A stretch of DNA of 64,000 nt, taken from NCBI GenBank assembly GCA_963710755.1, contig CAVQBK010000003.1, positions 32,001 to 96,000 on the forward strand, written 5' to 3'. Every line of letters starts with the position of its first letter. Positions within the stretch are counted from its first letter, which is position 1. Under the pieces are notes generated by a model. That model did not search any database. It had not been told where the DNA came from and saw only the letters and a list, made by a program, of their open reading frames with translations. Shown one piece after another: positions 35,188 through 51,729 of the stretch. Source of the stretch: an uncultured bacterium (lineage in GTDB: Bacteria; Oederibacteriota; JAAXVQ01; JAUVAV01). Both the position numbers and the translations under genes were made by a program.

Positions 35188-38073
35188 CTATTTGATCAAC
35201 GCTATCTTCTTAATCACCCTTTCACTTTTACCATACTCGTCTTTGGCTTTCACCAAGAACAGATAAACCCCGTTGGCCAGATTGCCCATATAGACTTGTT
35301 TGTGATGAAACCCAGCTGTGGGACACTCGAGGTTAAAGGTCATGACCTTTTGATGCGAAGTGGTATAGACTTGGACTTCCAGCGTACAAGCTGCCTTGAC
35401 GTAAACTGTAAAGTTGGCATTGTTGCCTCTCACTGGATTGGGAGCGGTATAGACAAACTTTTTACTGATTAATTGACCGTCAAAACCTTCAAGATTGATC
35501 GGGGTAGGGGTAACGGTGGCTGTTGGGGTGGGGGTTGGTGTGGGTGCTACCTGATCCAAGGTTTGAATTTCGTAAATATTATTCTGGTCGTCCAGTAAAT
35601 AAACTTCATTTTGATAATCATTATCACCATCGCCAATAGCCTCGGAGATAATATTGGATTGGGTATCAGCTATTTTATCAGCGTGCCAGGAGCTGTTCTC
35701 ATACTTGATTTTATAAACAGCGCCTTCCTGACTACCTGCGGTCAAATCATCCTTGCCATTATTGTCGCTGTCGCTTAACTTCATCACCGACAATCTTTCC
35801 GGGGCTTCGGCTATGGTGGTTTCGGTCCAACTGGAGATGGTTTTAGTATATTCATAAACCTGGCCGTTCTCATTAGCAGCGTAAACATCCACCTGCCCAT
35901 CCCCGTCGAGATCACCGACTGCAACGCTGACCATGGCGCTGGTTTTTGAACCAATTGAATTTATATCCCATGTTAGGCCGTTGAATGTGTATTGATATAT
36001 ATTCCCATTCGCATTGGCTGTATAGACTTCAAATTGCTGGTTATCGTCCGCATCGCCCCAAGCGATCGCTTTAACTTCCTGGGCGCCGGACGGCGTCCCC
36101 ATCATTTCCTTTTGCCATGAAGAAGTTGCCGTCTCTTTTGTGAATTGATAAAGCTCGCCTGAGCTGGTGCCCGCATAAATCTTTACCCATCCGTCATTGT
36201 TGCCATCACCGGCTTCCAGACAAATAATATCATCTGTAGCAGCCCCCATATCGGTCTTGTCCCAAGCAGGGCTTTTGAGAGCATATAAGTGATTGTTGAC
36301 TGACCCAGCAAAGACTTCTTTGGCATGGTCATGATCTCCATCCACCACGAAGCTGGCAACATAGTTTTCTCCTGAGCTTCCATTAGGTAGGGTGCTGCTT
36401 TGCCAGCCGTTCACTAGATAGTCTATTTTAGTCAGATAAAGATTGCGGTTGGCCACAATCAATTCATTTTCACCGTCATTATCGGCATCACCCACACTAA
36501 TCGAGCCCAGGGTTCCGCTTAATGCCGACGCACCAAGTGATTTCACTGGATTAATAGCCGAACCCAAGGGGGGGATACTCTTTTTAAGCACCAGCATCGC
36601 CTGGGTCAACTGTTCTGTTTGACTGCCGGCCGACATCTGCACGTTATAATATCCTGGTGCAGCACTACCGGCATTAACATCGACTTCTGCCAAATGTTCC
36701 GTGGTTTTGGCCATATTCAAAATAGGCAGGTCCACCGTATTTGCAAAAACACGAACTGTGAAGGGCTCAATAAAACTCATCCCCGTTAATTTCAATTTAA
36801 TGGTCTGACCGGTTGCCACATAGTTTGGGTAACTCGCGGTCAAAATGAACTGGTCATTATAAATGAGCAGTCTATTATTCAGCCTCTCGGTCGTGAATAG
36901 TTTTGAATTATAAACAAAAATACCGCTGATGCCAGCCATGGTGTTGGCATCTGCTGTTCCTCCTTGGTTGGCTGCACTACTAATCATATCCGGTTGACCA
37001 ATTACAATATCAGCAGCTGGATTATTCGCTGTTGGCAATTGATTATAGATAAGCGCCCGATTATTGCCCCCATCTGCTATAAACAACTTATTATTGCCGA
37101 CAAAAAATCTCTCTGGGCTGGATAATGAATGGCTGGTACAACTTCCTGTACCCATTCCCTGATTTATCCCTCCATGATTCATATCTACTTGTCCAACCAC
37201 CAAGTCGGCAGAAGCACCGTTGCTGGTGGGGACAGAGTTGAATATAAGAATCCTGTTATTAGTAGGGTCTGATAAAAATAGTTTGCTATTATATATTCTC
37301 ACGTCGCCTGGAGCTTTTATTGCGGAAGCAGAACATCCGCTGTCACTAGTAGTCATATCGGCTTGCCCAATCACAAAATCTGCCGATGAATTATTGTTGG
37401 TAGGAATATTGTTAAATATCAGGACTCGATTATTCATTGCATCGGCAATCAACAGTTTTGTCCCATCACTCCACACAGCTTTTGGATAATATAAGGTATT
37501 GTCTGCGGGATTTAGTTGTCCTTGGTTGGGCTGATTACTGTACATATCGGGCTGGCCAATCACAACGTCAGCACTAGCACCATTTGTGCTTGGTATCGAA
37601 TTATAGATAAGGACGCGATTATTTCTGAAGTCAGCAATAATCAGCTTATTATTGCTGGCCCAAATACCCTGGGCATTATAAAGCGTTGTCGGCGTTGGCC
37701 CGCCGCCTTGATTTTCCAATTTAGCCGTAAAATTAATCTGGCCTACCACCACATCGGCCGCCTGATAATTGGCGGATGGAATACTATTGTAGATCAGAAC
37801 GCGGTTGTTACTATGATCGGCAACAAATAGTTTGTTGCCGGCTAGAAAAGGTGCATAGGGATAGTCATATTTTTGCGACGTTGTTCCTGCGGCAATGGTT
37901 TGCATATCCGGTTGGCCCACCACAATATCGGCGGACTGATTATCGATAAATGCAGTTAGGCTTCTACTGATGCCAAGAAAAACTATTACGGTTACGGCAA
38001 CCTTAATGATGCTCTGCCGCCAAGAAAAGTGGCTTGAAATTATTTTAGCGTCTCCTGAGTTTAATCCCTGCAT
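35188..38073 (-). CDS. Secreted NHL-like + FG-GAP repeat protein with T9SS-type C-terminal domain
   Basis: About 6 repeats of ADxxNNRVLIYNSIP...ADxVxGQ; GDADNDG.NE-type FG-GAP repeats; Pro-Thr linker; APNP...NGVYLF...KKIALIK. Confidence 0.85.
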   Translation of the reverse strand: MQGLNSGDAKIISSHFSWRQSIIKVAVTVIVFLGISRSLTAFIDNQSADIVVGQPDMQTIAAGTTSQKYDYPYAPFLAGNKLFVADHSNNRVLIYNSIPSANYQAADVVVGQINFTAKLENQGGGPTPTTLYNAQGIWASNNKLIIADFRNNRVLIYNSIPSTNGASADVVIGQPDMYSNQPNQGQLNPADNTLYYPKAVWSDGTKLLIADAMNNRVLIFNNIPTNNNSSADFVIGQADMTTSDSGCSASAIKAPGDVRIYNSKLFLSDPTNNRILIFNSVPTSNGASADLVVGQVDMNHGGINQGMGTGSCTSHSLSSPERFFVGNNKLFIADGGNNRALIYNQLPTANNPAADIVIGQPDMISSAANQGGTADANTMAGISGIFVYNSKLFTTERLNNRLLIYNDQFILTASYPNYVATGQTIKLKLTGMSFIEPFTVRVFANTVDLPILNMAKTTEHLAEVDVNAGSAAPGYYNVQMSAGSQTEQLTQAMLVLKKSIPPLGSAINPVKSLGASALSGTLGSISVGDADNDGENELIVANRNLYLTKIDYLVNGWQSSTLPNGSSGENYVASFVVDGDHDHAKEVFAGSVNNHLYALKSPAWDKTDMGAATDDIICLEAGDGNNDGWVKIYAGTSSGELYQFTKETATSSWQKEMMGTPSGAQEVKAIAWGDADDNQQFEVYTANANGNIYQYTFNGLTWDINSIGSKTSAMVSVAVGDLDGDGQVDVYAANENGQVYEYTKTISSWTETTIAEAPERLSVMKLSDSDNNGKDDLTAGSQEGAVYKIKYENSSWHADKIADTQSNIISEAIGDGDNDYQNEVYLLDDQNNIYEIQTLDQVAPTPTPTPTATVTPTPINLEGFDGQLISKKFVYTAPNPVRGNNANFTVYVKAACTLEVQVYTTSHQKVMTFNLECPTAGFHHKQVYMGNLANGVYLFLVKAKDEYGKSERVIKKIALIK

Positions 38074-38090
38074 AAATATGCCCCCCAAAA

Positions 38091-38897
38091 CTATTTTTTC
38101 TCTCCAAAAAAAGTACGTTTTAATTTTTCTTTCACCTTCTGCATAAAAGGTCTTCTTAATTTGACCATGTAACTGTCTTTAACATCCAGCAACACACAAG
38201 GTTGGTTTACTGTTGCTACGGCGGCTTCCTGGTCGGAGCATAGTGCGAGCATCAAAGTGGGTTGTAAGGCTTCTTGGGTAAGTGACAACCTGTTCTTTTC
38301 ACCCGAAACGACCCTGCATTCTTTTATAGGTACAACCCCGTCTTTTCGGAAGATATAAGACATAAAATAGCTTTTCTGTCCAAACAAGGACAAGTAATTA
38401 AAATAACCTTTAATAAAATCAACAAATTCATTTTCGGTAAATTCCCTTTTATGGAAAGGATTTCCGCCGTAATTATTCCGGTCAGGTGTTGATACTATAA
38501 AAACGCCTTCTGGCTTTAATAGTCGTTTAACTTCATTTAAAAAAACAACTTGTTGCTGCTCACCAATATGTTCCAAGGTTTCAAAGGAGACAATCAGATC
38601 AAAGCTATTATTCTCTGCGAGTGGAATTTGGGTGGCTGAACCAGCCAAATAGCGAATATTGGGCTTTTTATATCGCGATTTTGCCTCGTTAATAGTCTCT
38701 TCGTCCAAATCAACGCCAATAACTTCCCTGGCAGCATCGGCCATAATGTTGCTGCCATAACCTTCGCCGCAGGCAATATCAAGTACTTTTTTATCTTTTG
38801 CCATATCAAGAATCCAATAATAGCGGTGCCAATGTTCATAATCCACATAGCGTTCTGAAGGTAAATAGCGTTCTTCCGTAATCTTGATTTTTTTCAT
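38091..38897 (-). CDS. Class I SAM methyltransferase (type seen in glycan loci)
   Basis: ERY.P...EHWHRY, VLDIACGEGYG, FD.IVSFET.EH, VSTPD, NPFH..E. Confidence 0.88.
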   Translation of the reverse strand: MKKIKITEERYLPSERYVDYEHWHRYYWILDMAKDKKVLDIACGEGYGSNIMADAAREVIGVDLDEETINEAKSRYKKPNIRYLAGSATQIPLAENNSFDLIVSFETLEHIGEQQQVVFLNEVKRLLKPEGVFIVSTPDRNNYGGNPFHKREFTENEFVDFIKGYFNYLSLFGQKSYFMSYIFRKDGVVPIKECRVVSGEKNRLSLTQEALQPTLMLALCSDQEAAVATVNQPCVLLDVKDSYMVKLRRPFMQKVKEKLKRTFFGEKK

Positions 38898-39131
38898 ATA
38901 ACCTCCCTAAAATCCCTTGGGCCAGCGCATTTTTTCTATCAGCCACTTGAAGCCAAACCAACTATCCCAATTTCAACTAAAATCGATAAATTTTAACTCA
39001 CAATATTTGCTTATGCAAAATATCTTTACTCTTTTGTGTTGGAGGAACAAAAGCGTGGATGGCACCTAATTCGAAGTAATTATATAAGAGGGCCATCTCT
39101 ACTTTAAATGTGAATGTCTTGGGCACAGAAC

Positions 39132-39965
39132 CTAAGCCTTGCTCAGCACGTAGGCCACGCGGATGCCATTGCCATAGACATCAGCCCAATGGGACGTGCG
39201 CTTCACGCTGACTTCGCCAAAAGCCTGCCAGGTGGGCACCTGAGGCCGGCAGTAGGCCTTCCACGAGAGCCGGTGGCTGCGCAGATTTAATATCCTGAAA
39301 AACTGTTCCAAAGCCGGTATTGTAGGCAACGCCAGCTGGCTTAAATCCTCGCCCTTGGCATTTTGCGTGGCCGGAGGCAAATGATAATCTTTTTTCTGCG
39401 ACCGGGTAAGAGGATAGTAAACCAGAGGCAGTTGAAAGCTGGCCGGGTTGGTGCCTGCCAAAAACGCTTCCCTATCCTTGGCCACTGTGGCCGCATAGTA
39501 CACGGTAAAGGTATCGAGGATAATGGCCTTTCTGGCCACCTTGGCCATGAGCTGCAAAGCCCGCAAGGGATCAGGCAGGTAGTAAAAGAGACCCAGGCAC
39601 AGCACGGTATCCACGCTGTCCGGCGCCATGATCTCCAAAGCTGCCAGCGCCTCCTGAACTTCAAAAGCATAGGCAGATGACGGCACCTGGTAATGGTCGA
39701 ACAAACGATTGGCTTGTTCAATCAGACCGGCCTCGCTGTCCAACCCCAGCACCCGCTGGGCGCCATGATGCCAGGCCGCATAGGCAAAGGTGCCAAAGTG
39801 GCAGCCCAGATCGAGGACAACCTGCCCGCGTATCCACGGCGCTTGGGCAATGATCAACTGTTCCACCCGGCTGTTGAGCGCTTCATAATGATAGGGCACG
39901 GCCCACCGTTTTTGCCGTTGGTCTTCCTGGACAAACAAGGAATTCTTTGTAAAGGTTTCGATCAT
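39132..39965 (-). CDS. Class I SAM-dependent transferase, CmoB-like core
   Basis: VLDLGCHFG..A...GA..VLGLD, DTVLCLGLFYY..DP...L, ILDT; ATGA-coupled to the CmoA-like gene. Confidence 0.7.
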   Translation of the reverse strand: MIETFTKNSLFVQEDQRQKRWAVPYHYEALNSRVEQLIIAQAPWIRGQVVLDLGCHFGTFAYAAWHHGAQRVLGLDSEAGLIEQANRLFDHYQVPSSAYAFEVQEALAALEIMAPDSVDTVLCLGLFYYLPDPLRALQLMAKVARKAIILDTFTVYYAATVAKDREAFLAGTNPASFQLPLVYYPLTRSQKKDYHLPPATQNAKGEDLSQLALPTIPALEQFFRILNLRSHRLSWKAYCRPQVPTWQAFGEVSVKRTSHWADVYGNGIRVAYVLSKA

Positions 39966-40678
39966 TTGAAAACCACCCAGGTCGTAAAATTCATGAATTT
40001 AAAGACCGGATGCCAGGCCCTAAACCGGGCCTTAGAAAAAAGTGCTTCCATCTGGGTCACAGTAAAGGGAATCAGGATCGATTTGAGAGCTAGTTCTTTT
40101 TGTTCGATTTCCAGAGTGCTGTAGCCTTGCCGCGCTTTGAAACGGTAATAATGATCGGTCATGAGCGCATTGAGCCGGGAATCGTCACTGCCGGTCTTCT
40201 CCGACACAATCAATATCCCCTTGGGCACCAAGGCTGCGGCCATGCGCTCCAGCAGGCCGGGCCGTTGGTCCGGGTCTACAAATTGCAGGACATAGGCTGC
40301 GTTGATCACCGAAGCTTCGCTCAAAGGCGTGTCTTCAACGCCCTGCGCCAGCCAGTGTACAGACTTCAGATGACGGCATTTTTGTTGGGCCAGTCGGATC
40401 ATGTGGGGCGACTTGTCCACTGCCACCAGCTCGTACGGTTGCTGCAGGGCCTGGTCCATAGCCAGGACCGTGGTGCCGGTGGAGCAGCCCAAGTCATAAA
40501 TGCGCGTGTTGTCCTGGTAATAGCATGCCGTTGCTGCCGCCACAAAAGCCTGCAATTCGTGATAAAAGGGAATGGACCGGCTCGCCATGTCGTCAAAAAC
40601 CTCGGCCGTGGCCTGATCAAAAGTAAAGGGCGGCACAACACTTAATTTTTTACGATACAGCTCATCTGAAGGTGCCAT
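39962..40678 (-). CDS. CmoA-like (carboxy-SAM synthase family) protein with substituted active site
   Basis: FTFD...AEVFDDM..RSIPFY, YDLGCSTG, LQF, SEK, FK..QGYS.LEI.QK, FKFMNF. Confidence 0.8.
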   Translation of the reverse strand: MAPSDELYRKKLSVVPPFTFDQATAEVFDDMASRSIPFYHELQAFVAAATACYYQDNTRIYDLGCSTGTTVLAMDQALQQPYELVAVDKSPHMIRLAQQKCRHLKSVHWLAQGVEDTPLSEASVINAAYVLQFVDPDQRPGLLERMAAALVPKGILIVSEKTGSDDSRLNALMTDHYYRFKARQGYSTLEIEQKELALKSILIPFTVTQMEALFSKARFRAWHPVFKFMNFTTWVVFK

Positions 40679-40820: not shown

Positions 40821-41711
40821 ATGACCCCAACTTTAACCTTGGCCCTATACGCAGCAGCATTGTTATCCGGCGGGCTGACTTTCTATTATTTTTTCCAGAC
40901 CTATCGCGATTCCGGGCGCAGGCTGTGCTACCATTATCTGTTCTTTTTAATCGGGCTGAGTGCCTTGCTGGTGACCACTACGGTAGCCCATTACACCCAA
41001 CACGCCTTTCCAGGCCTGGTGCTGGGACGGCTAACGCAGTCAACCGTGATTCTAAGTTGCTCTATGCTGGTCTGGGCTTTGCCCAATTTAGTCCTCTCTC
41101 TGTATTATCACCCGGCTGCCAGTCAGTGGCATTACGTATTTTCCAATGCCGCGGTTGTCACCTCGCTGATGACGGTACTGCTTTGGTTCTGGCCGGTTCA
41201 GGCCATGGCCACCTTTCCTGTATTTATGGCTTATTTGGCTTTGGGCCTGGCCGCACTTTTTTCCGCAGCCGTACTTTATCAAAACCGTGACGCTGTAATT
41301 AAAGCTTCCTCCACTTTTTTAAAGCTGGCCATGGTGGTCTTTTTTGTGCTGGTCAGCCTGGTCATTTACGCCGAAGCCACCGCTGCTTGGCCAGCCTGGC
41401 CGGGCCTTACCTATAGTTTTCCCATGATTTTTCTACTCTGGAATGGGCTCTCCCTGCTGTTTAAATTCAACGCCCCCGGTGATTCGCTGGCCACCAAGTC
41501 GGCCATCCAAGCTTTTAAACGCGTTCACCAGCTTTCCGACCACGAAGAAGCCATCATTGAAAATATTTTGGCGGGAAAAATGAATGCAGAAATCGCCCGG
41601 GAAATGAATCTGCCCAAAGACATGCTGAACAATCAAATTAACAAGATCTTCCAAAAAGTCAAGATCCAAAACCGCCTCGACTTGCTGAAAAAGATCCACG
41701 AACTTCACTAG
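40821..41711 (+). CDS. Membrane-bound LuxR-family HTH regulator
   Basis: About 7 TM helices then LS..E..II..IL.G..N.EIA.......I..IF.K..I.NR. Confidence 0.8.
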   Translation: MTPTLTLALYAAALLSGGLTFYYFFQTYRDSGRRLCYHYLFFLIGLSALLVTTTVAHYTQHAFPGLVLGRLTQSTVILSCSMLVWALPNLVLSLYYHPAASQWHYVFSNAAVVTSLMTVLLWFWPVQAMATFPVFMAYLALGLAALFSAAVLYQNRDAVIKASSTFLKLAMVVFFVLVSLVIYAEATAAWPAWPGLTYSFPMIFLLWNGLSLLFKFNAPGDSLATKSAIQAFKRVHQLSDHEEAIIENILAGKMNAEIAREMNLPKDMLNNQINKIFQKVKIQNRLDLLKKIHELH

Positions 41712-43456
41712 GCCCCTCTGGTTTTGTAATACCCTTCCCACAACCCCTGAATAAATTTGGCCACATTCTGTCCCAGCGTACGTATCCTATAACCACCCTC
41801 TTGCACCACCAAGGTGGCATAATGCAGCCGGCCCAGCCTATGCCCATGGCGATGAAAATCATGGCCAATGAAAGGCCAAGAACCGGTAGGATCGCCTTTG
41901 GCCGTATCCGCTCCGAAAGCAATGACCAGAAATTTCGGATTAAAGCGGGTTATTTTATGAATAGCCTGCTGCAGGGTGTCTTGATACATCTCAGTGGTAA
42001 TGGTTTCCGGTAAGGGATAATTCCAGTTGTACCCCAGTCCCGGACCATAACCTTTCTCGTCCTTGAAGCCTGTGAAGTAAGGGAAGGCCACATTGGGATG
42101 ACCATGAATAGAGATGGTCAGCACATCGGCCCGGTCGTAAAAAATATCCTGCTGGCCATTACCGTGGTGATAGTCAATGTCCACAACGGCCACCTTGCCG
42201 TACCGGCTCAGATAGGCCGCGGCCACAGCCGTGGTATTGAGATAACAAAATCCGCCGAACAGATTCTTCTCAGCATGATGCCCGGGCGGCCGCACCAAGG
42301 CATAGGCCAGGGCATTGCCCTGAACGAGCTCCTGGGCGGCGCTGAGCGCGCAATCCACTGCGCCCCGTGCCGCCAAAAAAGCATTGCGGTTGATCGGGGT
42401 AAAGGTATCCATGCAGTAATACCCCGCCCGAATGGCCAATTCATGAGGCGGCCGATGAGGATTGCGCACGGGAAACACATAGGGATAAATGGATTTCATT
42501 CCCGACAAGGACAGGCTGACCCGCTTGAGGTAGTGATAAAACCCGGCGGCGTGTACCGCCGTAATATATTTTTCCGGAAAGTGGCCGCTGCGCGCATATA
42601 CACATAATTGTTGTTTGCCCAACTCGCGCAAAATGGCATGAATGCGCACCGGCGCCTCCACATAACCGTTCTGTTTGATATGATGAATATCATGCTGGAC
42701 ATTATAAAACAATTTTATTTTCCGGTCCTCCGGAATGCCGGCGGCAAGCACAGGAACGCTTTCTTGAAGATAACGAAAAGGACGCAATTGCACGGGCTGG
42801 TCATTGATGGAGTGCACCACCTTATCCACGTAAGCCTGAGGGCAAAGATCGCCGTATTTGCGTTCCAAAATAGCCCGCACAATGGCACGGGTCTTACTTC
42901 GGGTGAGCGCCCGGTGCCAGCCCAGGTCATCAAACATTAAGTAAGGGGGACAATCGTCCTGAGCCGTCAGCGGGGTTTCATATAGCGTGTGGATGATGGG
43001 CCGGGCGCCATAACGTTCGTAAAAAGATAAGCGGGAGGCATTTTGCCTTAAGACCTTGGGATCTTGGCACAAGGCCGGGTCATCCGGCAGGCATTCGAAA
43101 AACAGACCCAGCACATCCAGGTAATGGCATTCATCGCGCACCCGTTCATACAACAATCCGCCGATGCCACTGCCGGTCTTGGCTTTGCTGGTGGCAATAA
43201 AATCAAGAAAACAAAAATTCAAATCAGGAGCGTAGTTGAGCAACACAAACCCCTGCACCACATGCTGCAAGGTTTCGGCCACAATCAAAAGGGTTCGGTA
43301 CTTATATTTAAGAGGGTTGTTTAACTCTTCGCGGATTTTTTCAATTTTCTCTTCCTTGATGGCAGGAAACTGGTCGTGTATGATCTGCTGGACCTGACGC
43401 AGCGCATCCTGATCGGGTTCGGTCTGGTCGCTGAGAATCTGGCGCAGGTTGATCAT
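41708..43456 (-). CDS. GNAT-domain + histone deacetylase-family (acetylpolyamine amidohydrolase-like) fusion
   Basis: N-terminal GNAT (LDFIA...GSGIGG.LY); C-terminal RPPGHHA, GGFCYLN, DIDYHHGNG, SIHG, GADT.KGDP, EGGY. Confidence 0.9.
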   Translation of the reverse strand: MINLRQILSDQTEPDQDALRQVQQIIHDQFPAIKEEKIEKIREELNNPLKYKYRTLLIVAETLQHVVQGFVLLNYAPDLNFCFLDFIATSKAKTGSGIGGLLYERVRDECHYLDVLGLFFECLPDDPALCQDPKVLRQNASRLSFYERYGARPIIHTLYETPLTAQDDCPPYLMFDDLGWHRALTRSKTRAIVRAILERKYGDLCPQAYVDKVVHSINDQPVQLRPFRYLQESVPVLAAGIPEDRKIKLFYNVQHDIHHIKQNGYVEAPVRIHAILRELGKQQLCVYARSGHFPEKYITAVHAAGFYHYLKRVSLSLSGMKSIYPYVFPVRNPHRPPHELAIRAGYYCMDTFTPINRNAFLAARGAVDCALSAAQELVQGNALAYALVRPPGHHAEKNLFGGFCYLNTTAVAAAYLSRYGKVAVVDIDYHHGNGQQDIFYDRADVLTISIHGHPNVAFPYFTGFKDEKGYGPGLGYNWNYPLPETITTEMYQDTLQQAIHKITRFNPKFLVIAFGADTAKGDPTGSWPFIGHDFHRHGHRLGRLHYATLVVQEGGYRIRTLGQNVAKFIQGLWEGYYKTRGA

Positions 43457-43971
43457 GGGGCGCTGATGCCGAATTTTTTCATGAACACCACCCGGTCATC
43501 CTGATCCGCATAGTAATCGGGAATCCTGGCCACTTCTGTGTAACCTTGACGCAAATAGAATTGGCGGGTGGGTTCGTACAAGGCGCGGCCCGCGGTCTCA
43601 ATAAAAATAATCTCGCCCTTGTCCGCTTTGATCATCTGCTCCATGCGGATTAACAGTTGCCGGCCAATAGTCTGATTCTGCCAGTCTTTAGCCACGGCCA
43701 GCCAATAAATGTCAAAGCGATGACTGGTTAGAGGAATCGGCCCAAAACAACCATACCCTATCAGACGGCCTTTATGCTCCGCCATGAGAAACTCATAACC
43801 GCTGGCTTGGCCCTGATGAAGACGCGCCTCCACCAGTTCCCTGGCAATCTCGATTTCATTACCGTAAAAAAAGCCGGTACTGCGCAGCAATTCTTCCACG
43901 GCCCCTTGATCTGCGGCGGTCACGTCTTGGCGCCAAGTCAGGTTTTTAAATTCAATTGGACTGAGGTCCAT
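43453..43971 (-). CDS. GNAT N-acetyltransferase
   Basis: GY.CFGPIP, D.YWLAV...QNQ.IGR.L, ET.G...YEPTR.FY...GY, DYYA..DD. Confidence 0.9.
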   Translation of the reverse strand: MDLSPIEFKNLTWRQDVTAADQGAVEELLRSTGFFYGNEIEIARELVEARLHQGQASGYEFLMAEHKGRLIGYGCFGPIPLTSHRFDIYWLAVAKDWQNQTIGRQLLIRMEQMIKADKGEIIFIETAGRALYEPTRQFYLRQGYTEVARIPDYYADQDDRVVFMKKFGISAP

Positions 43972-44962
43972 GCTGGAACGCCCCCTTTGGTTTCAGCGCC
44001 ACGTCCAGCAGGCGTTGGATAATTTGGGCGGAGGGATAGCCGGCCCGGTCGGCAGCGGCTATAAATCCGGAGTCAGATGCAATGCCCGGATTGGCATTGA
44101 TCTCCAATACCCACAGCCGCCCGTCCTGGTCTTCACGAAAATCCACACGGGCGTATCCATTAAGACCAAAAGTTTGCCAGCACTGCAGCGCTGTTTGCTT
44201 GAGCGATTGGGCCAGGGATTCCTCCTCCACGAATTGCCTTCTGGTTTGTTGGTAGGCCGCGCTGGTGTTCATCCATTTGGCTTGATAGGTCAGAATCTTG
44301 GGTTTGCCCTGCGGCCATTGATCAAAAACAATCTCCGCCGGTGGCAGCACCTCCACACCTTCCTGCTCCTGCTCCACCAAAGCCACATTAAATTCCCGGC
44401 CATTGATGAAAGTCTCGACTAAGAGCGGCTGCCGGTAAAATGCCAGCAGGCGGCGGATTTCCTGCCGCAATTTATCCGGCGCGGTAAAGTAAATATTGTC
44501 ATGAATACCAACGGATGCATCTTCCCAGGCCGGTTTGACGATCCAGGGTCCTGGAATTTCCAACTCTAACGGGCCACCCCGGTAGACTTCCCAGGCTGGC
44601 GTGGGAAGTCGGTGCTTTTCCATCAAAGCCTTGGCCAGCAGTTTATCCGTGGTGGTAAGCATGGCTGCATAATGACAGCCCGTGCAGGGTATGCCCAGCA
44701 CAGCCCACAGTCCTGCTGCCGCAGACTGGATGCGTGGATCATGGCCATGGCTTTCCAGCAAATTAAATACCACGTCCGGCTGGAAGCGTATCAGCCTGGC
44801 CAGGTCCTTGTCCATGCCTCTTTGCCCCAAAGACAGGGCGAAAAGCTGATGCTCATGATGATAGCTGGTCAGGGCTTTGACCACCACATCGGTTTCATCC
44901 AATACATCCATCACATCGGGTTGATTTTTTTCAGGTTGGTTGTAACATACCGCCACTTTCAT
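43952..44962 (-). CDS. Ddl-like ATP-grasp ligase B
   Basis: VFNL.ES, DK..AK, IVKP..EDASVGI, E.FI.GREFNV, GYARVDFR, EINANP; lacks the Ddl N-terminal GGxSxE motif. Confidence 0.88.
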   Translation of the reverse strand: MKVAVCYNQPEKNQPDVMDVLDETDVVVKALTSYHHEHQLFALSLGQRGMDKDLARLIRFQPDVVFNLLESHGHDPRIQSAAAGLWAVLGIPCTGCHYAAMLTTTDKLLAKALMEKHRLPTPAWEVYRGGPLELEIPGPWIVKPAWEDASVGIHDNIYFTAPDKLRQEIRRLLAFYRQPLLVETFINGREFNVALVEQEQEGVEVLPPAEIVFDQWPQGKPKILTYQAKWMNTSAAYQQTRRQFVEEESLAQSLKQTALQCWQTFGLNGYARVDFREDQDGRLWVLEINANPGIASDSGFIAAADRAGYPSAQIIQRLLDVALKPKGAFQHGPQSN

Positions 44963-44971
44963 AACCAACTC

Positions 44972-46000
44972 CTAGGCCACTTTCTTGTCTGTCGCCGGCA
45001 GAGGCGGCATGCGTTTCTGAGCCGAACGGACGATACCTTTGATGAGATCCAAATAAGACAGGCCCAGTTGGCCGCACATGATGGGCAGGTCGGAATCCAC
45101 TGGATTCAAACCCGGCAGAGGATTGATCTCCATAAAATGCAGCTGCCCATGCCGGTCTTCCCGCAGATCCACCCGCGCCACATCCCGGCATTGCAGGACC
45201 TGATAAGCCGCCATGGCTATGGCGCCGGCTTGCTCAATCGCGGCCGGATCGCGGACCAATTCATAGCGCACAAAATCACGGTAATATTTCTTGTTATGGT
45301 AGGAATAAAAATCATCTGTGGCTTCAGGATTTAATTTAATTTCCAGTACGCCCAGCACCCGGGCGGCTGGCCCCGTGCCGATGATGCCCACTGTCAATTC
45401 CCGTCCGGGCAGATATTCCTCCACCAATACCGGCTGACAACAGTGAGCGAGCACTAAGCTCACGGTCTGCTGCAACTGCTGGTAGTCGCGGACCATGGCA
45501 TTGGACAAAATACCCTTGCCCGTGCCTTCATAAGCCGGTTTAACAAACAAGGGATAGGTCAGTGCCTCCTGGTCCATGACGCTATGCAATTGCTCCATGT
45601 TGGTAACCGTTGCAAACTTGGCCGTGGCTACACCCGCACTGGCCACCAAACGCTTGGTAATGGCTTTGTCCAGGCTTACACTCAGGGTCAAGGGATCGCT
45701 AAAGGTGTACGGGATTTGAAAGGCTTCCAGGATGGCAGGCACCTGCGACTCCCGGTTGCGCCCCTGCAGGCCTTCGGCAATATTAAACACCAAGTCCCAA
45801 CGTTGGTTGCAGGCCAGTTGTTTGACCAGGGCATTGACATTGCCGATCATCACCGGCGTGTGCCCCATCTGGGCAACAGCATCGGCGATGGCGCTAATGG
45901 TGTCCTCGGAATCAAACTCCGCGGCCTGTTCCTCGCTCAGACCAGCGGCCAAATAAACTTTTTTCAAATCATAGGTTAGTCCGATTTTCATTTTGGTCAC
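44972..46000 (-). CDS. Ddl-like ATP-grasp ligase A
   Basis: VFNIAEG..GR.RESQVP.ILE, LDK..TK, FVKP..EGTGKGI, EEYLPGRE.TV, RVD.R, EINPLPGL. Confidence 0.88.
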   Translation of the reverse strand: MTKMKIGLTYDLKKVYLAAGLSEEQAAEFDSEDTISAIADAVAQMGHTPVMIGNVNALVKQLACNQRWDLVFNIAEGLQGRNRESQVPAILEAFQIPYTFSDPLTLSVSLDKAITKRLVASAGVATAKFATVTNMEQLHSVMDQEALTYPLFVKPAYEGTGKGILSNAMVRDYQQLQQTVSLVLAHCCQPVLVEEYLPGRELTVGIIGTGPAARVLGVLEIKLNPEATDDFYSYHNKKYYRDFVRYELVRDPAAIEQAGAIAMAAYQVLQCRDVARVDLREDRHGQLHFMEINPLPGLNPVDSDLPIMCGQLGLSYLDLIKGIVRSAQKRMPPLPATDKKVA

Positions 46001-46027
46001 CTTTACTCAAAACATACCGGTCGGCCC

Positions 46028-47323
46028 TTAGGCCGTCTGGCTGCGTGCTCGCCGCCGTTGCCAGCGCTCGCTCTGCAGGGGAGCCACGATGCGCGTGCCA
46101 GGGACGGCATTGGGTTTTAGAAGCTGTGGCCGTTTGCCCGCGTATCGCCGGCCGCGGTCAGAGCTCTCCTGCGGGTTTTCACAAATCACGATCATACCTT
46201 CATAATTGCGCAACATCACTTCCTGAGGACTGGCACTGAGCAGGTAGAAAGGTTGCAAGGGAATCTTGCCGCCGCCGCCGGGTGCATCCACCACGAAGGT
46301 GGGTATGCACATACCCCCGGTATGACCACGCATGGCCTCGATGATCTCCAGGCCTTTTAAGATATTGGTCCGAAAATGATCCACCCCGGACACGGGATCG
46401 CATTGGAACAGATAATAGGGCCGCACCATGATCCGTTGCAGGGCATGATTGAGTTCCAGCATGGTTTCCACCGAATCATTGATGCCTTTGAGCAGCACGG
46501 TCTGATTGGAAACAGGAATGCCGCCCAATTGCAGTTTGTTACATGCTTCCTGAGCCTCCGGGGTAATTTCCTGCTTGTGATTAAACTGGGTATTGATCCA
46601 CATGGGCCGGTGTCTTTTTAACACCTCCACCAGTTCATCCGTAATGCGCATAGGCAATACCACCGGAACCCGGGTGCCGATGCGGATCACTTCCAGATGC
46701 GGTATTTTTCTCAAGTCCGACAAAAAACCGTTGAGCAGATCCAGATTCATAATCAACGGATCGCCGCCGGAAATAATGATCTCGCGCACCTTCCTGGTAT
46801 TCTTGACATACTCCACCATTTTTTGCAGATCCAGACGTGAGCAGGCGTACTCCCCATTTTTCCAGATGCGCTTTCTGGTGCAATGACGGCAATACATGCT
46901 ACAGGTGTTGGTGACAATGGCCAGCACCCGGTCAGGATAACGATGCACCAGATTGGGCACAGGCATGTCTTTTTCTTCCTCCAAGGGATCATCATGACCT
47001 GCAAGGCCGGAATCGATCTCCTTGAGATCGGGCAGGCATTGCTTGCGAACGGGATCATCAGGATCATCCCAGTTAATCAAGGAGAAGTAATAGGGTGTGA
47101 TCGCAAACGGATAAAGGGCATTCAATTTTTTATACTTCGATACCTGATTGGGACTTAAGGGCAGTACTTCCGCCAGCTTGTCTAGGGAGCGCAGCCGATT
47201 GGCCATTTGCCAGCGCCAGTCCTGCCATTGCTCCAAACTTGTTTGCGGCCACAGTTGCGCCATGACCTTTTCATTCAGTTGTTCCGTGCTGTAACTCGGC
47301 GGCTCGTTGTCTTCTTGTTTCAT
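46028..47323 (-). CDS. kamA: Lysine 2,3-aminomutase-type radical SAM/PLP enzyme
   Basis: W.DW.WQ..N, HRYPDR, CSMYCRHCTR, SGGDP, NQ.VLL.GIND, YYLFQCD, FVVDAPGGGGKIP (PLP lysine). Confidence 0.92.
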   Translation of the reverse strand: MKQEDNEPPSYSTEQLNEKVMAQLWPQTSLEQWQDWRWQMANRLRSLDKLAEVLPLSPNQVSKYKKLNALYPFAITPYYFSLINWDDPDDPVRKQCLPDLKEIDSGLAGHDDPLEEEKDMPVPNLVHRYPDRVLAIVTNTCSMYCRHCTRKRIWKNGEYACSRLDLQKMVEYVKNTRKVREIIISGGDPLIMNLDLLNGFLSDLRKIPHLEVIRIGTRVPVVLPMRITDELVEVLKRHRPMWINTQFNHKQEITPEAQEACNKLQLGGIPVSNQTVLLKGINDSVETMLELNHALQRIMVRPYYLFQCDPVSGVDHFRTNILKGLEIIEAMRGHTGGMCIPTFVVDAPGGGGKIPLQPFYLLSASPQEVMLRNYEGMIVICENPQESSDRGRRYAGKRPQLLKPNAVPGTRIVAPLQSERWQRRRARSQTA

Positions 47324-47358
47324 TCACTTTCACCTCAAGTCCGGCCTGAGCAGGGCCG

Positions 47359-47406
47359 TTAGATAGTAGTTGGAGGCGTATTGGTCGTGGTTATAGTTGG
47401 GATCAT
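47359..47406 (-). CDS. Putative 15-aa leader peptide MIPTITTTNTPPTTI
   Basis: ATG...TAA ending 35 bp before kamA; 7 Thr, 3 Ile, 3 Pro; followed by a CGGCC/GGCCG hairpin next to the kamA RBS. Its own RBS is weak. Confidence 0.5.
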   Translation of the reverse strand: MIPTITTTNTPPTTI

Positions 47407-47725
47407 AGCGTTTCCATGAAAAACAATACAAATTTAATTTTTATGATTTAATATTTTTTTTATTTGACAAAGCGCTTGCCACGGCTCACATGTATTTAAG
47501 GCTTTTAATTTAGTCTTTTTATGCCTATTTTGGTAAAATTCATAAAAACAGCCTTATTTGCACGTGTTTTTAAAAGGAAAAAAGTAAACTTTGTTTTTAT
47601 CCTGTATTTATGGGGGAAAATGATGGTTTTTCGGCTGAGGCTGAGGACGACGATTTTTTTTAGATCTTTTTTGTGCCAACTAACGGTGGTGTTATAATGG
47701 GGAAACATTTATTCCCGGAGGACCC

Positions 47726-48139
47726 ATGGACCAGGATGCTTACCTAGCTCATTTATTGGATACGATTGACGGTCTTTACACCGGTTTGCGTTCCAAAAAG
47801 ACATCCTTAAGTGTTGAGGCTTATAAAGCCTTGCTCAATGATTATTATCTGAAACATTTCGGCTTTGACCGCCGTACCGGTAAGATGACCACACAGGATT
47901 ATATTACCAAGACCTATTGTCAGCAGAATCCTTTTCCGCTGGATAAATGCCTGCTGCTGGCCTGCTTTCTGTTGGAAGACGTAACCTTGAGCCAGGAAGA
48001 TGTGGCTGAGCAAAAGCGACTGTTAAAAAAAGTGCAGTTTATTGACAGCATGATCACCCGTCATCATCCGAACTTGGTATATGAGCCCTTTAAAAAAGAA
48101 TTGTCCCTTTGGACGGCCAAGGTGCAGGAACAGGAATAA
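47726..48139 (+). CDS. Hypothetical protein
   Basis: GGAGG RBS, upstream TGTTATAAT extended -10; 137 aa. Confidence 0.65.
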   Translation: MDQDAYLAHLLDTIDGLYTGLRSKKTSLSVEAYKALLNDYYLKHFGFDRRTGKMTTQDYITKTYCQQNPFPLDKCLLLACFLLEDVTLSQEDVAEQKRLLKKVQFIDSMITRHHPNLVYEPFKKELSLWTAKVQEQE

Positions 48140-48179
48140 ACTACCCTGCTCTTCAGAGACCGTGTCCTAGCCATTTTTT

Positions 48180-48290
48180 GTCGTCATCCCGGCGTCGACG
48201 AAAGTCGAAGATCCAGCGCAAGCTGGACCGGAATCGGAGGGCCTTGATTTTAAGGTCTTTTCTGGACCCCGGCTTTCGCCGGGGCGACGG
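48180..48290. repeat. REP-like palindromic element (GTCATCCCGGC...CCCGGCTTTCGCCGGG type)
   Basis: CGTCATCCCGGCG...TCGAC-gaaa-GTCGA...CTGGACCCCGGC-tttc-GCCGGGGCGACG; nested hairpins. Confidence 0.75.
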
Positions 48291-48434
48291 CTATAGGGCG
48301 CCCTCAGATTAGCTTGTCCCCATATCATAGGATATTTTTAAAACCGAATAGTTCCCTAGCGCCAAAATAAATATTCAGTCTTAATTTAAAGGACTTTGAC
48401 CAACCTAATTGGAGAAGATCTATTAAAGCATCTA

Positions 48435-49733
48435 TTAAAACACCGATTTAAGCAGCACGTTAATCAGATCCTCATCGCGGTAATGGATGGTCAAACCGGC
48501 TTTGTAATAAGGATGACGGAGGATGTCTTCCGCGCCGGCGCTGAGTTCGATCAGATCCATAAGCACCACCCCCACGCGCGCATCGAGCTGCAGGGGATTG
48601 AGATCCACCCGATAGGCATCGAGAAGCACTTTAAAGTTGTCATCCATCATGCGCAGATCCAGGCCGGCCACAAAATAATCATCCTTGATCAGCCCGCCGC
48701 GGATATAAAGCGGGGTCTGGAGAATACGCCAGGCCAGCTGGGCTTCCAGTGTGGTCTGGTCGGTTTCCTCTCCGTAGAGACCGGTCACCTTTTGAATACC
48801 CAACATGTAATAACGCTGATCGCTGGGCCAGATATGCATCTGGGCAAATCCACCGGCAATATTACTTTCATATTTATTTAGTCCAAAACTCAGATCAAAG
48901 CGGATACGGTCGATTTTTTCCTGGTATTCACCGACCCGTTTGACCACCCGCGACGCCGTGGTCACGGTCTCGTCAATTTTCTCCTTGGTCTCAGGAGAAA
49001 TCAGGGTCTGTTCTGCGTTTTTCAGATCGGCCACCACCACCCGGATATCTTTAACGGAAGCCACCAGTTCGTCATAAAGTTCGGGATCCTTCATCAGCTT
49101 CTGAGCCGTACCTTCATTGTCATTCAGCGTACGGGCAAAAGTATGCAGCTGGCTTAGAACCTCACGCAATTCATGGTAAAGACCGGGGTCCTTGGTCAGT
49201 TGCCCCAGGCTGCCTTGGCCGTTGGCAATATCACTGCTGATCTCGTCCAGATTGCGCAGCAGGCTTTTGGCGGAGACCATCATGCTGTCCAGATCACCGG
49301 CCAGTTCCTTGGCCGGCACGCCCTCAAGCACCGCGCCATTGGCCACCATGGGGGCATTGCTGCTGCCCGGGGTAATATCCACGAACATGTCTCCCAAGAG
49401 CCCCATGCCCTTAATTTGAGCCTGAGCATCATTTTTAATATAGGCTTGAATTCTTTTTTCCACTTCCATAACCACCCGGATAGTGGCTGGATTGCTGCCT
49501 TTGACAAAATCCACCTTTTTAACCGAGCCCACTTCCATGCCTGAAAACCACACCGGTGAAGAGGCCCGCAGACCGGCCACATTAGGGTAATAAGCAGTCA
49601 GTTCGATTTTTTTGGAGAAGGGATTGACGCCCTTGGTGGGGAAAATCATGGCCAGCAAAGCAATACCGAGGGCCAGAGTAAATAATGTTCCCACTCTTAA
49701 TTTCATAGCTGCGTGATTGCGACTGCTCCTCAT
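48435..49733 (-). CDS. mlaD: MlaD/MCE protein with long helical region and C-terminal beta-rich domain
   Basis: TM anchor, GL...SPV.FSG..VG.V, GLLGD.FV.I.PG, G.GSLG.L..D..LY repeats, alternating beta strands at the C-terminus. Confidence 0.88.
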   Translation of the reverse strand: MRSSRNHAAMKLRVGTLFTLALGIALLAMIFPTKGVNPFSKKIELTAYYPNVAGLRASSPVWFSGMEVGSVKKVDFVKGSNPATIRVVMEVEKRIQAYIKNDAQAQIKGMGLLGDMFVDITPGSSNAPMVANGAVLEGVPAKELAGDLDSMMVSAKSLLRNLDEISSDIANGQGSLGQLTKDPGLYHELREVLSQLHTFARTLNDNEGTAQKLMKDPELYDELVASVKDIRVVVADLKNAEQTLISPETKEKIDETVTTASRVVKRVGEYQEKIDRIRFDLSFGLNKYESNIAGGFAQMHIWPSDQRYYMLGIQKVTGLYGEETDQTTLEAQLAWRILQTPLYIRGGLIKDDYFVAGLDLRMMDDNFKVLLDAYRVDLNPLQLDARVGVVLMDLIELSAGAEDILRHPYYKAGLTIHYRDEDLINVLLKSVF

Positions 49734-49802
49734 GTCACCATCCTTAAGGTATATTCGCCAGGCACTGATTTCTAACCGGCAGAGTCGGAATAAAAGGTTG
49801 GT

Positions 49803-49903
49803 CTCGCGCCAAGCCGCCAAGAAAATTAAAACAAAGCCTTATTTAAGCTTTTAATCGCAAAAAGATTTTATCTTTTCTTTGCGCCTTGGCGGCTTGGCGA
49901 GAG
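49803..49903. repeat. MITE/REP-like inverted repeat (CTTGGCGGCTTGGCG family), copy 2
   Basis: CTCGCGCCAAGCCGCCAAG ... CTTGGCGGCTTGGCGAGAG around an AT-rich core, inside the mlaF-mlaD gap. Confidence 0.75.
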
Positions 49904-49961
49904 TATTTCTTTCAAACCGTGCCAGGCACTGTTTCCAAGGCCGCTAAGTTGAGGCGCCTCT

Positions 49962-50684
49962 TTATTGAAAATAGCGATCGATCATCGTGCTATGTTGTCG
50001 CATAAAGGCTTTTTTTGTGCCGCTCCAGGCCACTTGCCCCTGGCGAATTACTAAAAAATGGTCAGCCACTTTTTCGGCATCATCCAGATTGTGGGTGACA
50101 ATAATACTGGCCACATGATGGTCCTCTTTTAATTTCTCGATCAATTCCAAAATGCTGCCGCGCGACACCGGATCAAGACCCGTGGTTGGTTCGTCATATA
50201 AAATAAGTTCCGGCTTGTAAATCAGAGCCCGCGCAATCGCCACCCGGCGGCGCATACCTCCCGAGAGTTCATCGGGCATCATGTCAATCGTATGGCGCAG
50301 TCCCACGGTGGCGAGCATATCCAGAACCTGATCTTCAATGTCAGCGTGGGTCTTTTTGTTGTGCTCCATGAAATAATAGCCTACGTTTTCACCGACCGTC
50401 ATGGAATCAAAAAGCGCACCGTCCTGGAAGACCATGCCAAAGCGCTTGCGGATATCCACCAATTCGTCATAGGGCACACGGCTGATATCACGGCCGTGGA
50501 TGAGCACCCGCCCCTGGTCCGGTAAGGCCAGGCCGAGGATGATCCTAAGAATCGTGCTCTTACCTGAACCGGAGGCGCCCAGAATGGCCAGGGTGGTCTG
50601 CCCCTGCACGGTCAGGGATACCTGTTGCAGGATTTGTTTGCCGCCAATACTATAGTCAATGTGATCCAGTTCCAGCATGATCAA
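49962..50684 (-). CDS. mlaF: MlaF ABC ATPase
   Basis: GASGSGKST, FQDGALFDS.TV.ENV, LSGGMRRRV, YDEPTTGLDP, VTH. Confidence 0.93.
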   Translation of the reverse strand: MIMLELDHIDYSIGGKQILQQVSLTVQGQTTLAILGASGSGKSTILRIILGLALPDQGRVLIHGRDISRVPYDELVDIRKRFGMVFQDGALFDSMTVGENVGYYFMEHNKKTHADIEDQVLDMLATVGLRHTIDMMPDELSGGMRRRVAIARALIYKPELILYDEPTTGLDPVSRGSILELIEKLKEDHHVASIIVTHNLDDAEKVADHFLVIRQGQVAWSGTKKAFMRQHSTMIDRYFQ

Positions 50685-51442
50685 ACCCCAAACATTTTGA
50701 GCACTACAAAACCAATAAAATAATTGGCCAAAAAAATCACCACTGAACTGGTCACCACGGCGCTGGCCGCGGCTTCACCCACGCCGCGTACGCCTTTGGA
50801 AGCGCGCAGGCCCATGTAAGTGGCAATACTGGCAATGATCAGGCCGAAGATAAAGGGTTTGATCATCCCGCCCGAAAGATGGCGCATGATAAAGGCTTTG
50901 CGGGCTTCGAACCAAAACATGCCCGGCGACACATGGGATACCAGGAATCCACCCAGCATGGCGATCAGATTGGTGACCATGGTGCACGCCGGCGCCATAA
51001 AAAATAAAGCCACCAGCCTGGGCGTCACCAGTTTTTGCATGGGATCCTGTCCCAGGCCTTCAATGGAATCAATCTGCTGGGTGACTTGCATAGAGCCCAG
51101 TTCTGAAGCAATGCGTGCCCCCAGCCGGCCGGCCAGCATAAGGCCGGTTATGACCGGTCCCAGTTCACGCACTGTGGCCACGGCCAACATGCGGCCGATA
51201 TAGACCTTGGCTCCATAGACCGACATCTCCGCTTCCAACAACAAGGTGATGGCCATGCCGATAAACAATCCCGTGGCCACCAGAATGCCGATGGACTGCA
51301 CGCCCAGTGCATCCATTTGTTCTATGACGTCCCGGGCATGGGGCGGCCTTTTTACCAACGACAGCAGGGCCTGGCCGACAAAAATAAAATAATCGCCCAC
51401 AGCATTGATGGTCTTTTTTATTTTTTCAATCAACTCCTGCAC
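50681..51442 (-). CDS. mlaE: MlaE ABC permease
   Basis: RELGPV..G.MLAGR.GA.IASELGSM.VT.QID, LV.PR; GTG start after AGGAGG. Confidence 0.93.
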   Translation of the reverse strand: MQELIEKIKKTINAVGDYFIFVGQALLSLVKRPPHARDVIEQMDALGVQSIGILVATGLFIGMAITLLLEAEMSVYGAKVYIGRMLAVATVRELGPVITGLMLAGRLGARIASELGSMQVTQQIDSIEGLGQDPMQKLVTPRLVALFFMAPACTMVTNLIAMLGGFLVSHVSPGMFWFEARKAFIMRHLSGGMIKPFIFGLIIASIATYMGLRASKGVRGVGEAAASAVVTSSVVIFLANYFIGFVVLKMFGV

Positions 51443-51729
51443 CGGGCCTCCTTGCACCTCATCACTCAGGGACCAAACAAGTCCGTGAGTGATGGGTTGC
51501 AAAGCACTTGAACATAATTAAAATAAAACATAGTCAAATGCGGTCTATTTTTGATTTTCGATCTTTATTTTTTGCTTTTCATTTTTCGGTTTTCAAAACC
51601 TGCTTCACCACAGACATTTTAAGATCATGAGTCAAGGCTTACCTTTTCACGGAATGACCCCGACCACGAGAACTGGGGTGGGGTGGTATGGGCCTGCCTG
51701 AGGATATGAGATCATCTCTGAATCACGAC

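Follow-up and report, generated by a model that had tools for sequence, protein, structure and literature searches.

The window analysed here is a stretch of 64,000 nucleotides (nt) from an uncultured bacterium of the Oederibacteriota (contig CAVQBK010000003.1 of assembly GCA_963710755.1, positions 32,001 to 96,000 of the forward strand), whose genome comprises 3.44 Mb in 13 contigs. According to the listing of its open reading frames (ORFs), five co-oriented genes lie on the minus strand at 41708–47323 and form an operon, which we refer to as the cassette where the same genes occur in other genomes. The first gene, kamA (46028–47323, 431 aa), encodes a paralog of lysine 2,3-aminomutase (LAM), a radical S-adenosylmethionine (SAM) and pyridoxal phosphate (PLP) enzyme, and is followed by grasp1 (44972–46000, 342 aa) and grasp2 (43952–44968, 338 aa), encoding two ATP-grasp ligases that resemble D-alanine–D-alanine ligase (Ddl), and by a gene for a small GNAT acetyltransferase (43453–43971, 172 aa). 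The last gene (41708–43456) encodes a fusion protein of 582 aa in which a GNAT domain (residues 1–245, 42722–43456, placed with AlphaFold2 and Foldseek) precedes a zinc deacetylase domain of the acetylpolyamine amidohydrolase (APAH) type (residues 266–582, 41708–42661, placed with Pfam Hist_deacetyl). From kamA to the fusion gene, the genes are separated by gaps of 27 nt and 3 nt and then overlap by 20 nt and 4 nt; inspection of the sequence ahead of kamA shows an A+T-rich intergenic region (47324–47725). A sequence-only reading of the window had proposed five closely packed genes here, encoding the synthesis and turnover of a beta-lysine conjugate, and our ORF limits were identical to those proposed, with the families confirmed by Pfam and NCBIfam.

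The operon KamA has the Pfam domains LAM_C and Radical_SAM and passes the NCBIfam model of the KamA subfamily (TIGR00238, 340.1 bits against a cut-off of 199.2), while reaching neither the AblA equivalog (TIGR03820, 500.9 bits against 525.4) nor the EpmB equivalog (247.7 bits against 369.3). It matches the Clostridium LAM structure 2A5H with an E-value of 4.2e-127, and its radical-SAM motif CSMYCRHC, of the form CxxxCxxC, aligns with that of 2A5H. The motifs HRYPDR, QCD and VVDAPGGGGK, from which a lysine-type enzyme had been proposed, were all found and align with the matching motifs of the Clostridium enzyme; residues D293 (in QCD), D330 and K337 (in VVDAPGGGGK) of 2A5H are identical in the operon KamA, which supports that assignment. 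We take D293 and D330 to be the residues that hold the epsilon-amine of lysine, and K337 to be the PLP lysine. Conversion of L-lysine to beta-lysine by the operon KamA is thus a well-supported prediction from its sequence.

A canonical ablB-ablA pair is present on another contig of the same genome (C13:149101–151300, equivalent to L097:1447–3646), with AblB scoring 215 bits against a cut-off of 205.1 and AblA, encoded directly after it, scoring 767.2 bits against 525.4. The operon is therefore distinct from AblA and AblB, as had been supposed, and by these matches the organism probably also makes N-epsilon-acetyl-beta-lysine. The operon KamA is 48% identical to this AblA and 61–63% identical to the KamAs of the cassette in related genera. 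The genome has yet another gene of the KamA family (376 aa, C13:232939–234069 on the minus strand, or L089:1318–2448), its third, which falls under every equivalog cut-off and adjoins a gene for a PRK04164-family hypothetical protein. We built a quick maximum-likelihood tree from 54 KamA sequences, excluding incomplete ones and those outside 330–520 aa. In it, the genome's own AblA grouped with two KamAs without neighbouring ligase genes (support 99), and the ligase-linked KamAs fell into three further groups rather than one single clade. The operon KamA lay beside the AblA clade, and both Escherichia coli EpmB and the third paralog, which joins EpmB only through long branches, lay far off. 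The operon thus differs from the EpmA/EpmB system both in the score of its KamA under the EpmB model and in the distance of E. coli EpmB from the cassette KamAs in this tree.

Both ligases match the Pfam family Dala_Dala_lig_C (E-values of 1.5e-32 for grasp1 and 2.7e-27 for grasp2). The best Ddl model of NCBIfam, NF002378, gives them 170.4 and 125.9 bits, respectively, under its cut-off of 243, and every other Ddl or Van model also scores both under its cut-off. It had been claimed that the ligases lack the Ddl N-terminal motif, and neither has a Pfam match to Dala_Dala_lig_N; the N-terminal domain is nevertheless present in diverged form, since full-length Ddl models align from residue 17 of grasp1 and from residue 28 or 53 of grasp2. 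The only solved structures that the ligases match are of the Ddl/Van type, and weak side matches in Pfam are to RimK and TTL. The two ligases are 26% identical to each other and are therefore old paralogs.

We aligned E. coli DdlB with 55 grasp1 and 51 grasp2 sequences and compared individual residues. Positions K97, K144, E180, E187, K215, R255, D257, E270 and N272 of DdlB, which we take to be the ATP/Mg and catalytic positions, are kept in all 55 grasp1 sequences and in 50–51 of the 51 grasp2 sequences, so that both ligases should be active. The set that presumably contacts D-Ala (E15, Y216, S281 and L282) is changed in both, and differently between them. E15 is replaced by A in 44 of the 55 grasp1 sequences and by D, A or S in grasp2; Y216 is variable in grasp1 and is W in grasp2 (51/51); S281 is kept in grasp1 and is A in 37 of the 51 grasp2 sequences; and L282 becomes D in grasp1 (49/55) and G in grasp2 (50/51). 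In addition, H63 is E in both. The two proteins look like active ligases that are not D-Ala ligases, and their extra acidic side chains would suit amine-bearing substrates. Compared with Ddl and VanA, the cassette ligases belong to the same fold family and keep the ATP/Mg and catalytic positions, but they lie far under the family cut-offs, have the D-Ala-contacting positions replaced and form a fixed pair of diverged paralogs, with a housekeeping Ddl encoded elsewhere in the genome (C-domain score of 184.8 bits, against 114.6 and 97.0 bits for the operon ligases).

As had been read from the sequence, the operon encodes two acetyltransferase domains, one in the small GNAT and one at the N-terminus of the fusion protein. 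The small GNAT matches the Pfam families Acetyltransf_7 (E-value 4.9e-12) and Acetyltransf_1 (5.2e-11), and among the NCBIfam models rimI fits it best, with 50.9 bits under a cut-off of 86.4. It reaches 21.7 bits with the AblB model TIGR03827, whose cut-off is 205.1, and this model has no match in the fusion protein. In Pfam, the N-terminal part of the fusion protein reaches GNAT only below threshold (E-value 0.0099, 16.7 bits against 27). AlphaFold2 models this domain as a GNAT with a predicted local distance difference test (pLDDT) value of 91.6 and a predicted template-modelling score of 0.89, and its Foldseek neighbours are GCN5 (1m1d, E-value 6.6e-9) and, more weakly, RimI (2cnm) and PaiA (1tiq), with a probability of 1.00. 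Residues G97, G99, Y103, E121, R142 and E147 are invariant in alignments of 20, 62 and 38 relatives, and Y159 is invariant in the first two and nearly so in the third. In a further alignment, two GNAT references with in-frame stops (L038 and L110) were left out. The consensus around G97 and G99 is a G-x-G-I-G-G turn, presumably the acetyl-CoA-binding "motif A" of GNAT enzymes. A complex prediction for the fusion protein with the small GNAT scored 0.00, which speaks neither for nor against binding.

The C-terminal half of the fusion protein matches Hist_deacetyl (PF00850) over residues 266–571 (E-value 8.8e-67, 226 bits against a cut-off of 27.9), so that an acetyl writer and an acetyl eraser are indeed joined in one protein. 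Its best solved relatives are the APAHs 6phr (E-value 7.2e-63), 9gkz and 3q9b, followed by HDAC6, and by fold it is also nearest to an APAH (6phz, E-value 6.1e-26), in agreement with the proposed APAH type; its top structural matches are 31–36% identical. The tandem histidines, the zinc ligands of the DxDxH motif and the catalytic tyrosine are all present: H393, H394, D426, D428, H430, D517 and Y556 align with 6phr and are invariant in 62 relatives. The deacetylase would accordingly be of the small-molecule type and may, by similarity, hydrolyse acetylpolyamines. Against this likeness to APAHs in sequence, fold and aligned zinc and catalytic motifs, the fusion protein differs in bearing the N-terminal GNAT domain of about 245 residues and in an invariant loop of its own. 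This most conserved of the domain's family-specific stretches, YPYVFP(I/V)RN...GYYC.DTFTP (fusion residues 325–350, window positions 42409–42484), is the same in all 62 relatives and coincides with the lowest model confidence of the deacetylase (pLDDT <50 at residues 327–334 and 340–351); it may be a mobile substrate-binding loop.

A homolog search with the fusion protein gave 7742 matches at E<=0.001 among 8000 candidates scored, and a separate scan of one genome per species gave at least 599 matching stretches, all of them confirmed. The protein is thus encoded in at least 599 species genomes, of Chloroflexota, Thermodesulfobacteriota, Bacteroidota, Planctomycetota, Pseudomonadota, Myxococcota and other phyla, and homologs occur also in cultured bacteria, the database names including Desulfuromonas sp. 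AOP6 and [Eubacterium] cellulosolvens. The 120 homologs listed from the first search are 577–616 aa long and 54–100% identical to the query over at least 96% of its length. In the best 80 loci, both ligase genes lie beside the fusion gene in 46 and all five genes are present in 40, the remaining six loci with the ligase pair being interrupted by contig ends. The pair is not at the locus in the other 34, although 13 of these extend for 5 kb or more in each direction. A grasp1 ortholog (38–51% identity) is encoded elsewhere in each of the ten lone-fusion genomes checked out of these 34, and in all five examined further it lies within a kamA-grasp1-grasp2-gnat set.

Wherever the ligase pair occurs, grasp2 directly follows grasp1 (55 of 55 loci). 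The commonest gene order is kamA-grasp1-grasp2-fusion-gnat (20 loci), and the order of the window, kamA-grasp1-grasp2-gnat-fusion, is found at 12 loci. The genes are also fused in nature: among nine small-GNAT homologs of greater length, six are grasp2-GNAT proteins and the other three are GNAT-deacetylase-GNAT proteins with the extra GNAT at the C-terminus, while grasp1-grasp2 fusions account for 10 of the best 120 longer grasp1 homologs, one of them also with a GNAT. Co-occurrence, the fixed ligase pair and these natural fusions show that the cassette genes are functionally linked. A gene-neighbourhood survey, named as a check in the sequence-only reading, thus found the gene order conserved, and the recurrence of these genes as a group in many phyla shows that the operon is not a chance arrangement.

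We also surveyed 422 flanking ORFs at 56 loci and found no conserved transporter, amidotransferase, precursor or target gene beside the cassette, and no conserved export, immunity or mur genes. Because no other gene family recurs beside it, we regard the cassette as self-contained. The most widespread flanking family, generic sensor kinases, is present at 11 of the 56 loci; the second, at 8, includes an ABC-transporter ATPase ORF of the window (49962–50684), and sigma-54 activators flank the cassette at 4. At three Dehalococcoidia loci, the small GNAT gene and the fusion gene are separated by an inserted ORF of about 200 aa (L003:8380–8982, L021:4111–4722 and L014:3110–3712). The two that were scanned, in L003 and L021, encode MarC-family membrane proteins (E-values of 9.4e-38 and 3.8e-41), and the inserted ORF is the sole membrane protein inside any cassette copy examined. 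Three Dehalococcoidia loci also share a conserved small upstream ORF, which has MarR/winged helix-turn-helix (wHTH) domains in the one scanned (L001).

Among 31 related genomes, AblB is above its cut-off in four (G000, G001, G003 and G011) and the cassette ligases are found in eight (G000, G001, G006, G007, G009, G012, G013 and G014). Two of these genomes have both, six have the cassette only and two have AblB only; AblB and the cassette are independently distributed. Gene content within the cassette also varies. The three genomes of genus g9 (G012, G013 and G014; 84–99% complete) have kamA-grasp1-grasp2-gnat, and the fusion query, deacetylase part included, has no match in them at E<=0.001. 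In the two complete (100%) genomes of genus g7 (G007 and G009), kamA-grasp1-grasp2 is accompanied by a divergently transcribed fusion gene, and no ortholog of the small GNAT was found at E<=1e-8. In the genomes searched, the aminomutase, the two ligases and one GNAT or more thus make up the invariant set. This pattern suggests a product that is itself acetylated, with deacetylation added for control or turnover. The cycle of synthesis and turnover originally proposed is accordingly borne out in the fusion of the deacetylase to a GNAT but not as a fixed feature, since the deacetylase is optional and unmatched in three related genomes that have the other four genes. One grasp1 ortholog of genus g9 (G013:C20:4036–5028) contains an in-frame TAA, which may reflect a disrupted gene or a fault in the assembly.

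The five Dehalococcoidia genomes with the cassette that were checked, whose completeness is not established, are all without Ddl or MurC above the cut-offs, and their best matches to the Ddl models are the cassette ligases themselves. The Dehalococcoidia are a class not known to have peptidoglycan.

A fused di-ATP-grasp ligase of Myxococcota (683–709 aa; L132:8293–11553, L133:8039–11214 and L134:7677–10849), both halves of which are grasp1-like, was first taken for fused cassette ligases. We rejected it as a form of the cassette because all four loci lack kamA, GNAT and fusion genes within 19 kb each. At the three loci checked, the di-ligase gene is directly followed by a gene of the Peptidase_S58 (DmpA/BapA) family (E-values of 1e-111 to 1e-117). 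Enzymes of family S58 cleave beta-peptides, and the two Myxococcota genes may serve, separately from the cassette, to make and break down a beta-amino-acid peptide.

On balance, we think it probable that the five genes of the window encode, by themselves, a cytoplasmic pathway whose end product is a small amide or peptide that is N-acetylated and contains beta-lysine, and that the fusion protein governs its acetylation or turnover. KamA would first turn L-lysine into beta-lysine, a well-supported step and the one for which the sequence evidence is strong. The ligases, probably acting as a pair, would then form two ATP-dependent amide bonds involving beta-lysine as the acyl donor, the amine acceptor or both. 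A GNAT would acetylate one of the product's free amines, probably in the step immediately following ligase 2 (grasp2). The fusion protein would finally set the acetylation state, its APAH-type domain stripping the acetyl group for turnover or to give a cationic form, and its GNAT domain being able to restore the acetyl group or to substitute for the small GNAT. The steps after KamA are drawn from protein families, conserved residues, gene fusions and patterns of presence and absence. The product would most likely serve the cell as a compatible or stress solute, or as a reserve rich in nitrogen.

Several points weigh against this pathway. Which bonds form and which amine is acetylated are details that we infer. 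The fold neighbours of the modelled fused GNAT, GCN5 and RimI, are protein acetyltransferases, and a protein target would fit them equally. Saline, marine, freshwater, landfill and soil samples have all yielded loci, which give no habitat signal for a solute role. Opposing activities in one protein amount to a futile cycle unless they are regulated, and we identified no regulator or allosteric site. Finally, the deacetylase is nearly as widespread as the core and could be a true biosynthetic step that other enzymes have replaced elsewhere.

The closest known parallel is the AblA/AblB pathway to N-epsilon-acetyl-beta-lysine, which the relevant section of PMC3543383 (citing Pflueger et al. 2003) places in methanogens and some bacteria. 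As in that account, the cassette would employ a lysine 2,3-aminomutase and then a GNAT-type acetylation of a beta-lysine-derived amine. It differs in adding two ATP-grasp ligases and a deacetylase, in a KamA that scores under the AblA cut-off and two GNATs that are not AblB-like, and in its distribution, which is independent of that of the true ablB-ablA pair encoded elsewhere in the genome.

A second parallel is the synthesis of N-acetylglutaminylglutamine amide (NAGGN) by Ngg and AsnO, in which, as the passages of PMC8070244 on this solute describe it, one system both acetylates and couples to give a small acetylated peptide solute. The grasp2-GNAT fusions of other lineages recall the bifunctional Ngg portrayed there. 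The same passages place the gene for a MarR-type regulator, PA3458, divergently beside the NAGGN operon of Pseudomonas aeruginosa, to which the MarR/wHTH ORF upstream of the Dehalococcoidia cassette in L001 may be likened. The cassette differs from Ngg/AsnO in having no AsnO-type amidotransferase at the 56 loci and no NCBIfam match to Ngg, and in possessing Ddl-like ligases, an aminomutase and a deacetylase. We take the ligase part of Ngg to be an ATP-grasp enzyme as well.

The sequence-only reading knew of no described product for this arrangement, and our literature search likewise turned up no paper on the gene set in main texts, though supplements could mention the cluster; a term search of the main text of a survey of bacterial deacylases (PMC11532494) found no mention of a GNAT-fused deacetylase. 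The enzyme families and the logic of acetyl-beta-lysine and acetyl-peptide synthesis are thus known, whereas their combination, and the pairing of writer and eraser on a probable metabolite, are new. The occurrence of so compact a set in at least 599 species genomes of many phyla points to a further, undescribed beta-lysine metabolite. The architecture of the fusion protein pairs an acetyl writer with an eraser in a single polypeptide that would act most likely on a small molecule. To our knowledge, few cellular fates of beta-lysine are known, among them modification of elongation factor P (EF-P), lysine fermentation and some antibiotics.

A wider version of the pathway is conceivable, although we hold it to be doubtful as a whole. 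The cassette would then make a new class of small beta-lysine peptides in hundreds of species, and the GNAT-deacetylase would be a two-way acetyl switch on a metabolite, flipping it according to cell state: the acetylated compound would be neutral or zwitterionic and behave like a solute, and the free compound would be polycationic and resemble a polyamine. The Myxococcota di-ligase and its neighbouring hydrolase of the beta-aminopeptidase family would be another pair for synthesis and breakdown within this beta-peptide chemistry. If true, the acetyl switch would link osmoadaptation with polyamine-type functions.

Acetylation could instead serve as a protecting group on the way to a free cationic beta-lysine peptide or oligomer with a polyamine-like or antimicrobial role, an explanation that we judge improbable. 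The fused GNAT would block an amine of beta-lysine against cyclisation upon activation of the carboxyl group, the ligases would couple, and the fused deacetylase would deprotect last, so that the first and last steps would share one polypeptide. Arginine biosynthesis follows such an acetylate-then-deacetylate logic. The APAH-type deacetylase, of a class acting on cationic small amines, and the acidic residues found at substrate positions of the ligases (E for H63 in both, D for L282 in grasp1) agree with this route, and bacteria do possess cationic homo-polyamino acids (PMC10522769). It is difficult to reconcile with the three g9 genomes, in which kamA, the ligases and the small GNAT are retained without any match to the fusion query that would supply the deprotecting enzyme, and it leaves the small GNAT without a clear role. 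Nor are export or immunity genes conserved next to the cassette.

The sequence-only reading had also allowed for a reversible protein modification, in which a protein would receive beta-lysine or a short beta-lysyl peptide from the ligases, its acetylation being switched by the GNATs and deacetylase. The affinity of the fused GNAT fold to GCN5 and RimI and the rimI match of the small GNAT would suit this proposal, some ATP-grasp enzymes do act on proteins (RimK and TTL, the weak side matches of the ligases), and the KamA paralog EpmB serves EF-P modification according to its E. coli annotation. The structures matched by the ligases are, however, exclusively Ddl/Van, the deacetylase has small-molecule APAHs and not protein deacetylases as its nearest relatives, KamA falls short of the EpmB cut-off, and the flanks of the cassette show no conserved gene for a candidate target, which together make a protein target a distinctly poor prospect. 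A cell-wall role, with the ligases making a beta-lysine-containing dipeptide or cross-bridge unit of peptidoglycan, was likewise part of the original proposal and draws on the Ddl/Van structures as sole solved relatives and on homologs named "D-alanine–D-alanine ligase" in databases, but we find it very hard to credit given the much better Ddl elsewhere in the genome, the altered D-Ala site and missed Ddl cut-offs of both ligases, the lack of conserved mur genes beside the cassette and the five Dehalococcoidia genomes, of unestablished completeness, that carry it without Ddl or MurC above cut-off.

An Rfam scan of 41000–48500 gave no RNA element at E<=1, and no site with the sigma-54 consensus lies in the upstream region 47324–47725; across the whole window this consensus has 36 matches against 50 expected. 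One sigma-70-like site upstream of the operon (47470–47443, 9 of 12 positions) is no better than shuffled controls. A gene for a LuxR/GerE-type regulator of 296 aa (40821–41711, plus strand) converges on the operon, its 3' end overlapping that of the fusion gene by 4 nt, and it is not conserved with the cassette at the 56 loci.

Beyond the LuxR-type gene, on the minus strand, three genes for SAM-dependent methyltransferases stand in a row (38091–40678), followed by one for an NHL/FG-GAP repeat protein of 966 aa (35188–38088); neither is conserved with the cassette. On the other side, upstream of the operon and on the same minus strand, is a set of Mla-like lipid-transport genes (MlaD, an ABC ATPase and MlaE; 48435–51502). 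No RNA sequencing run is listed for the stretch, which is contained in three DNA runs from one soil study.

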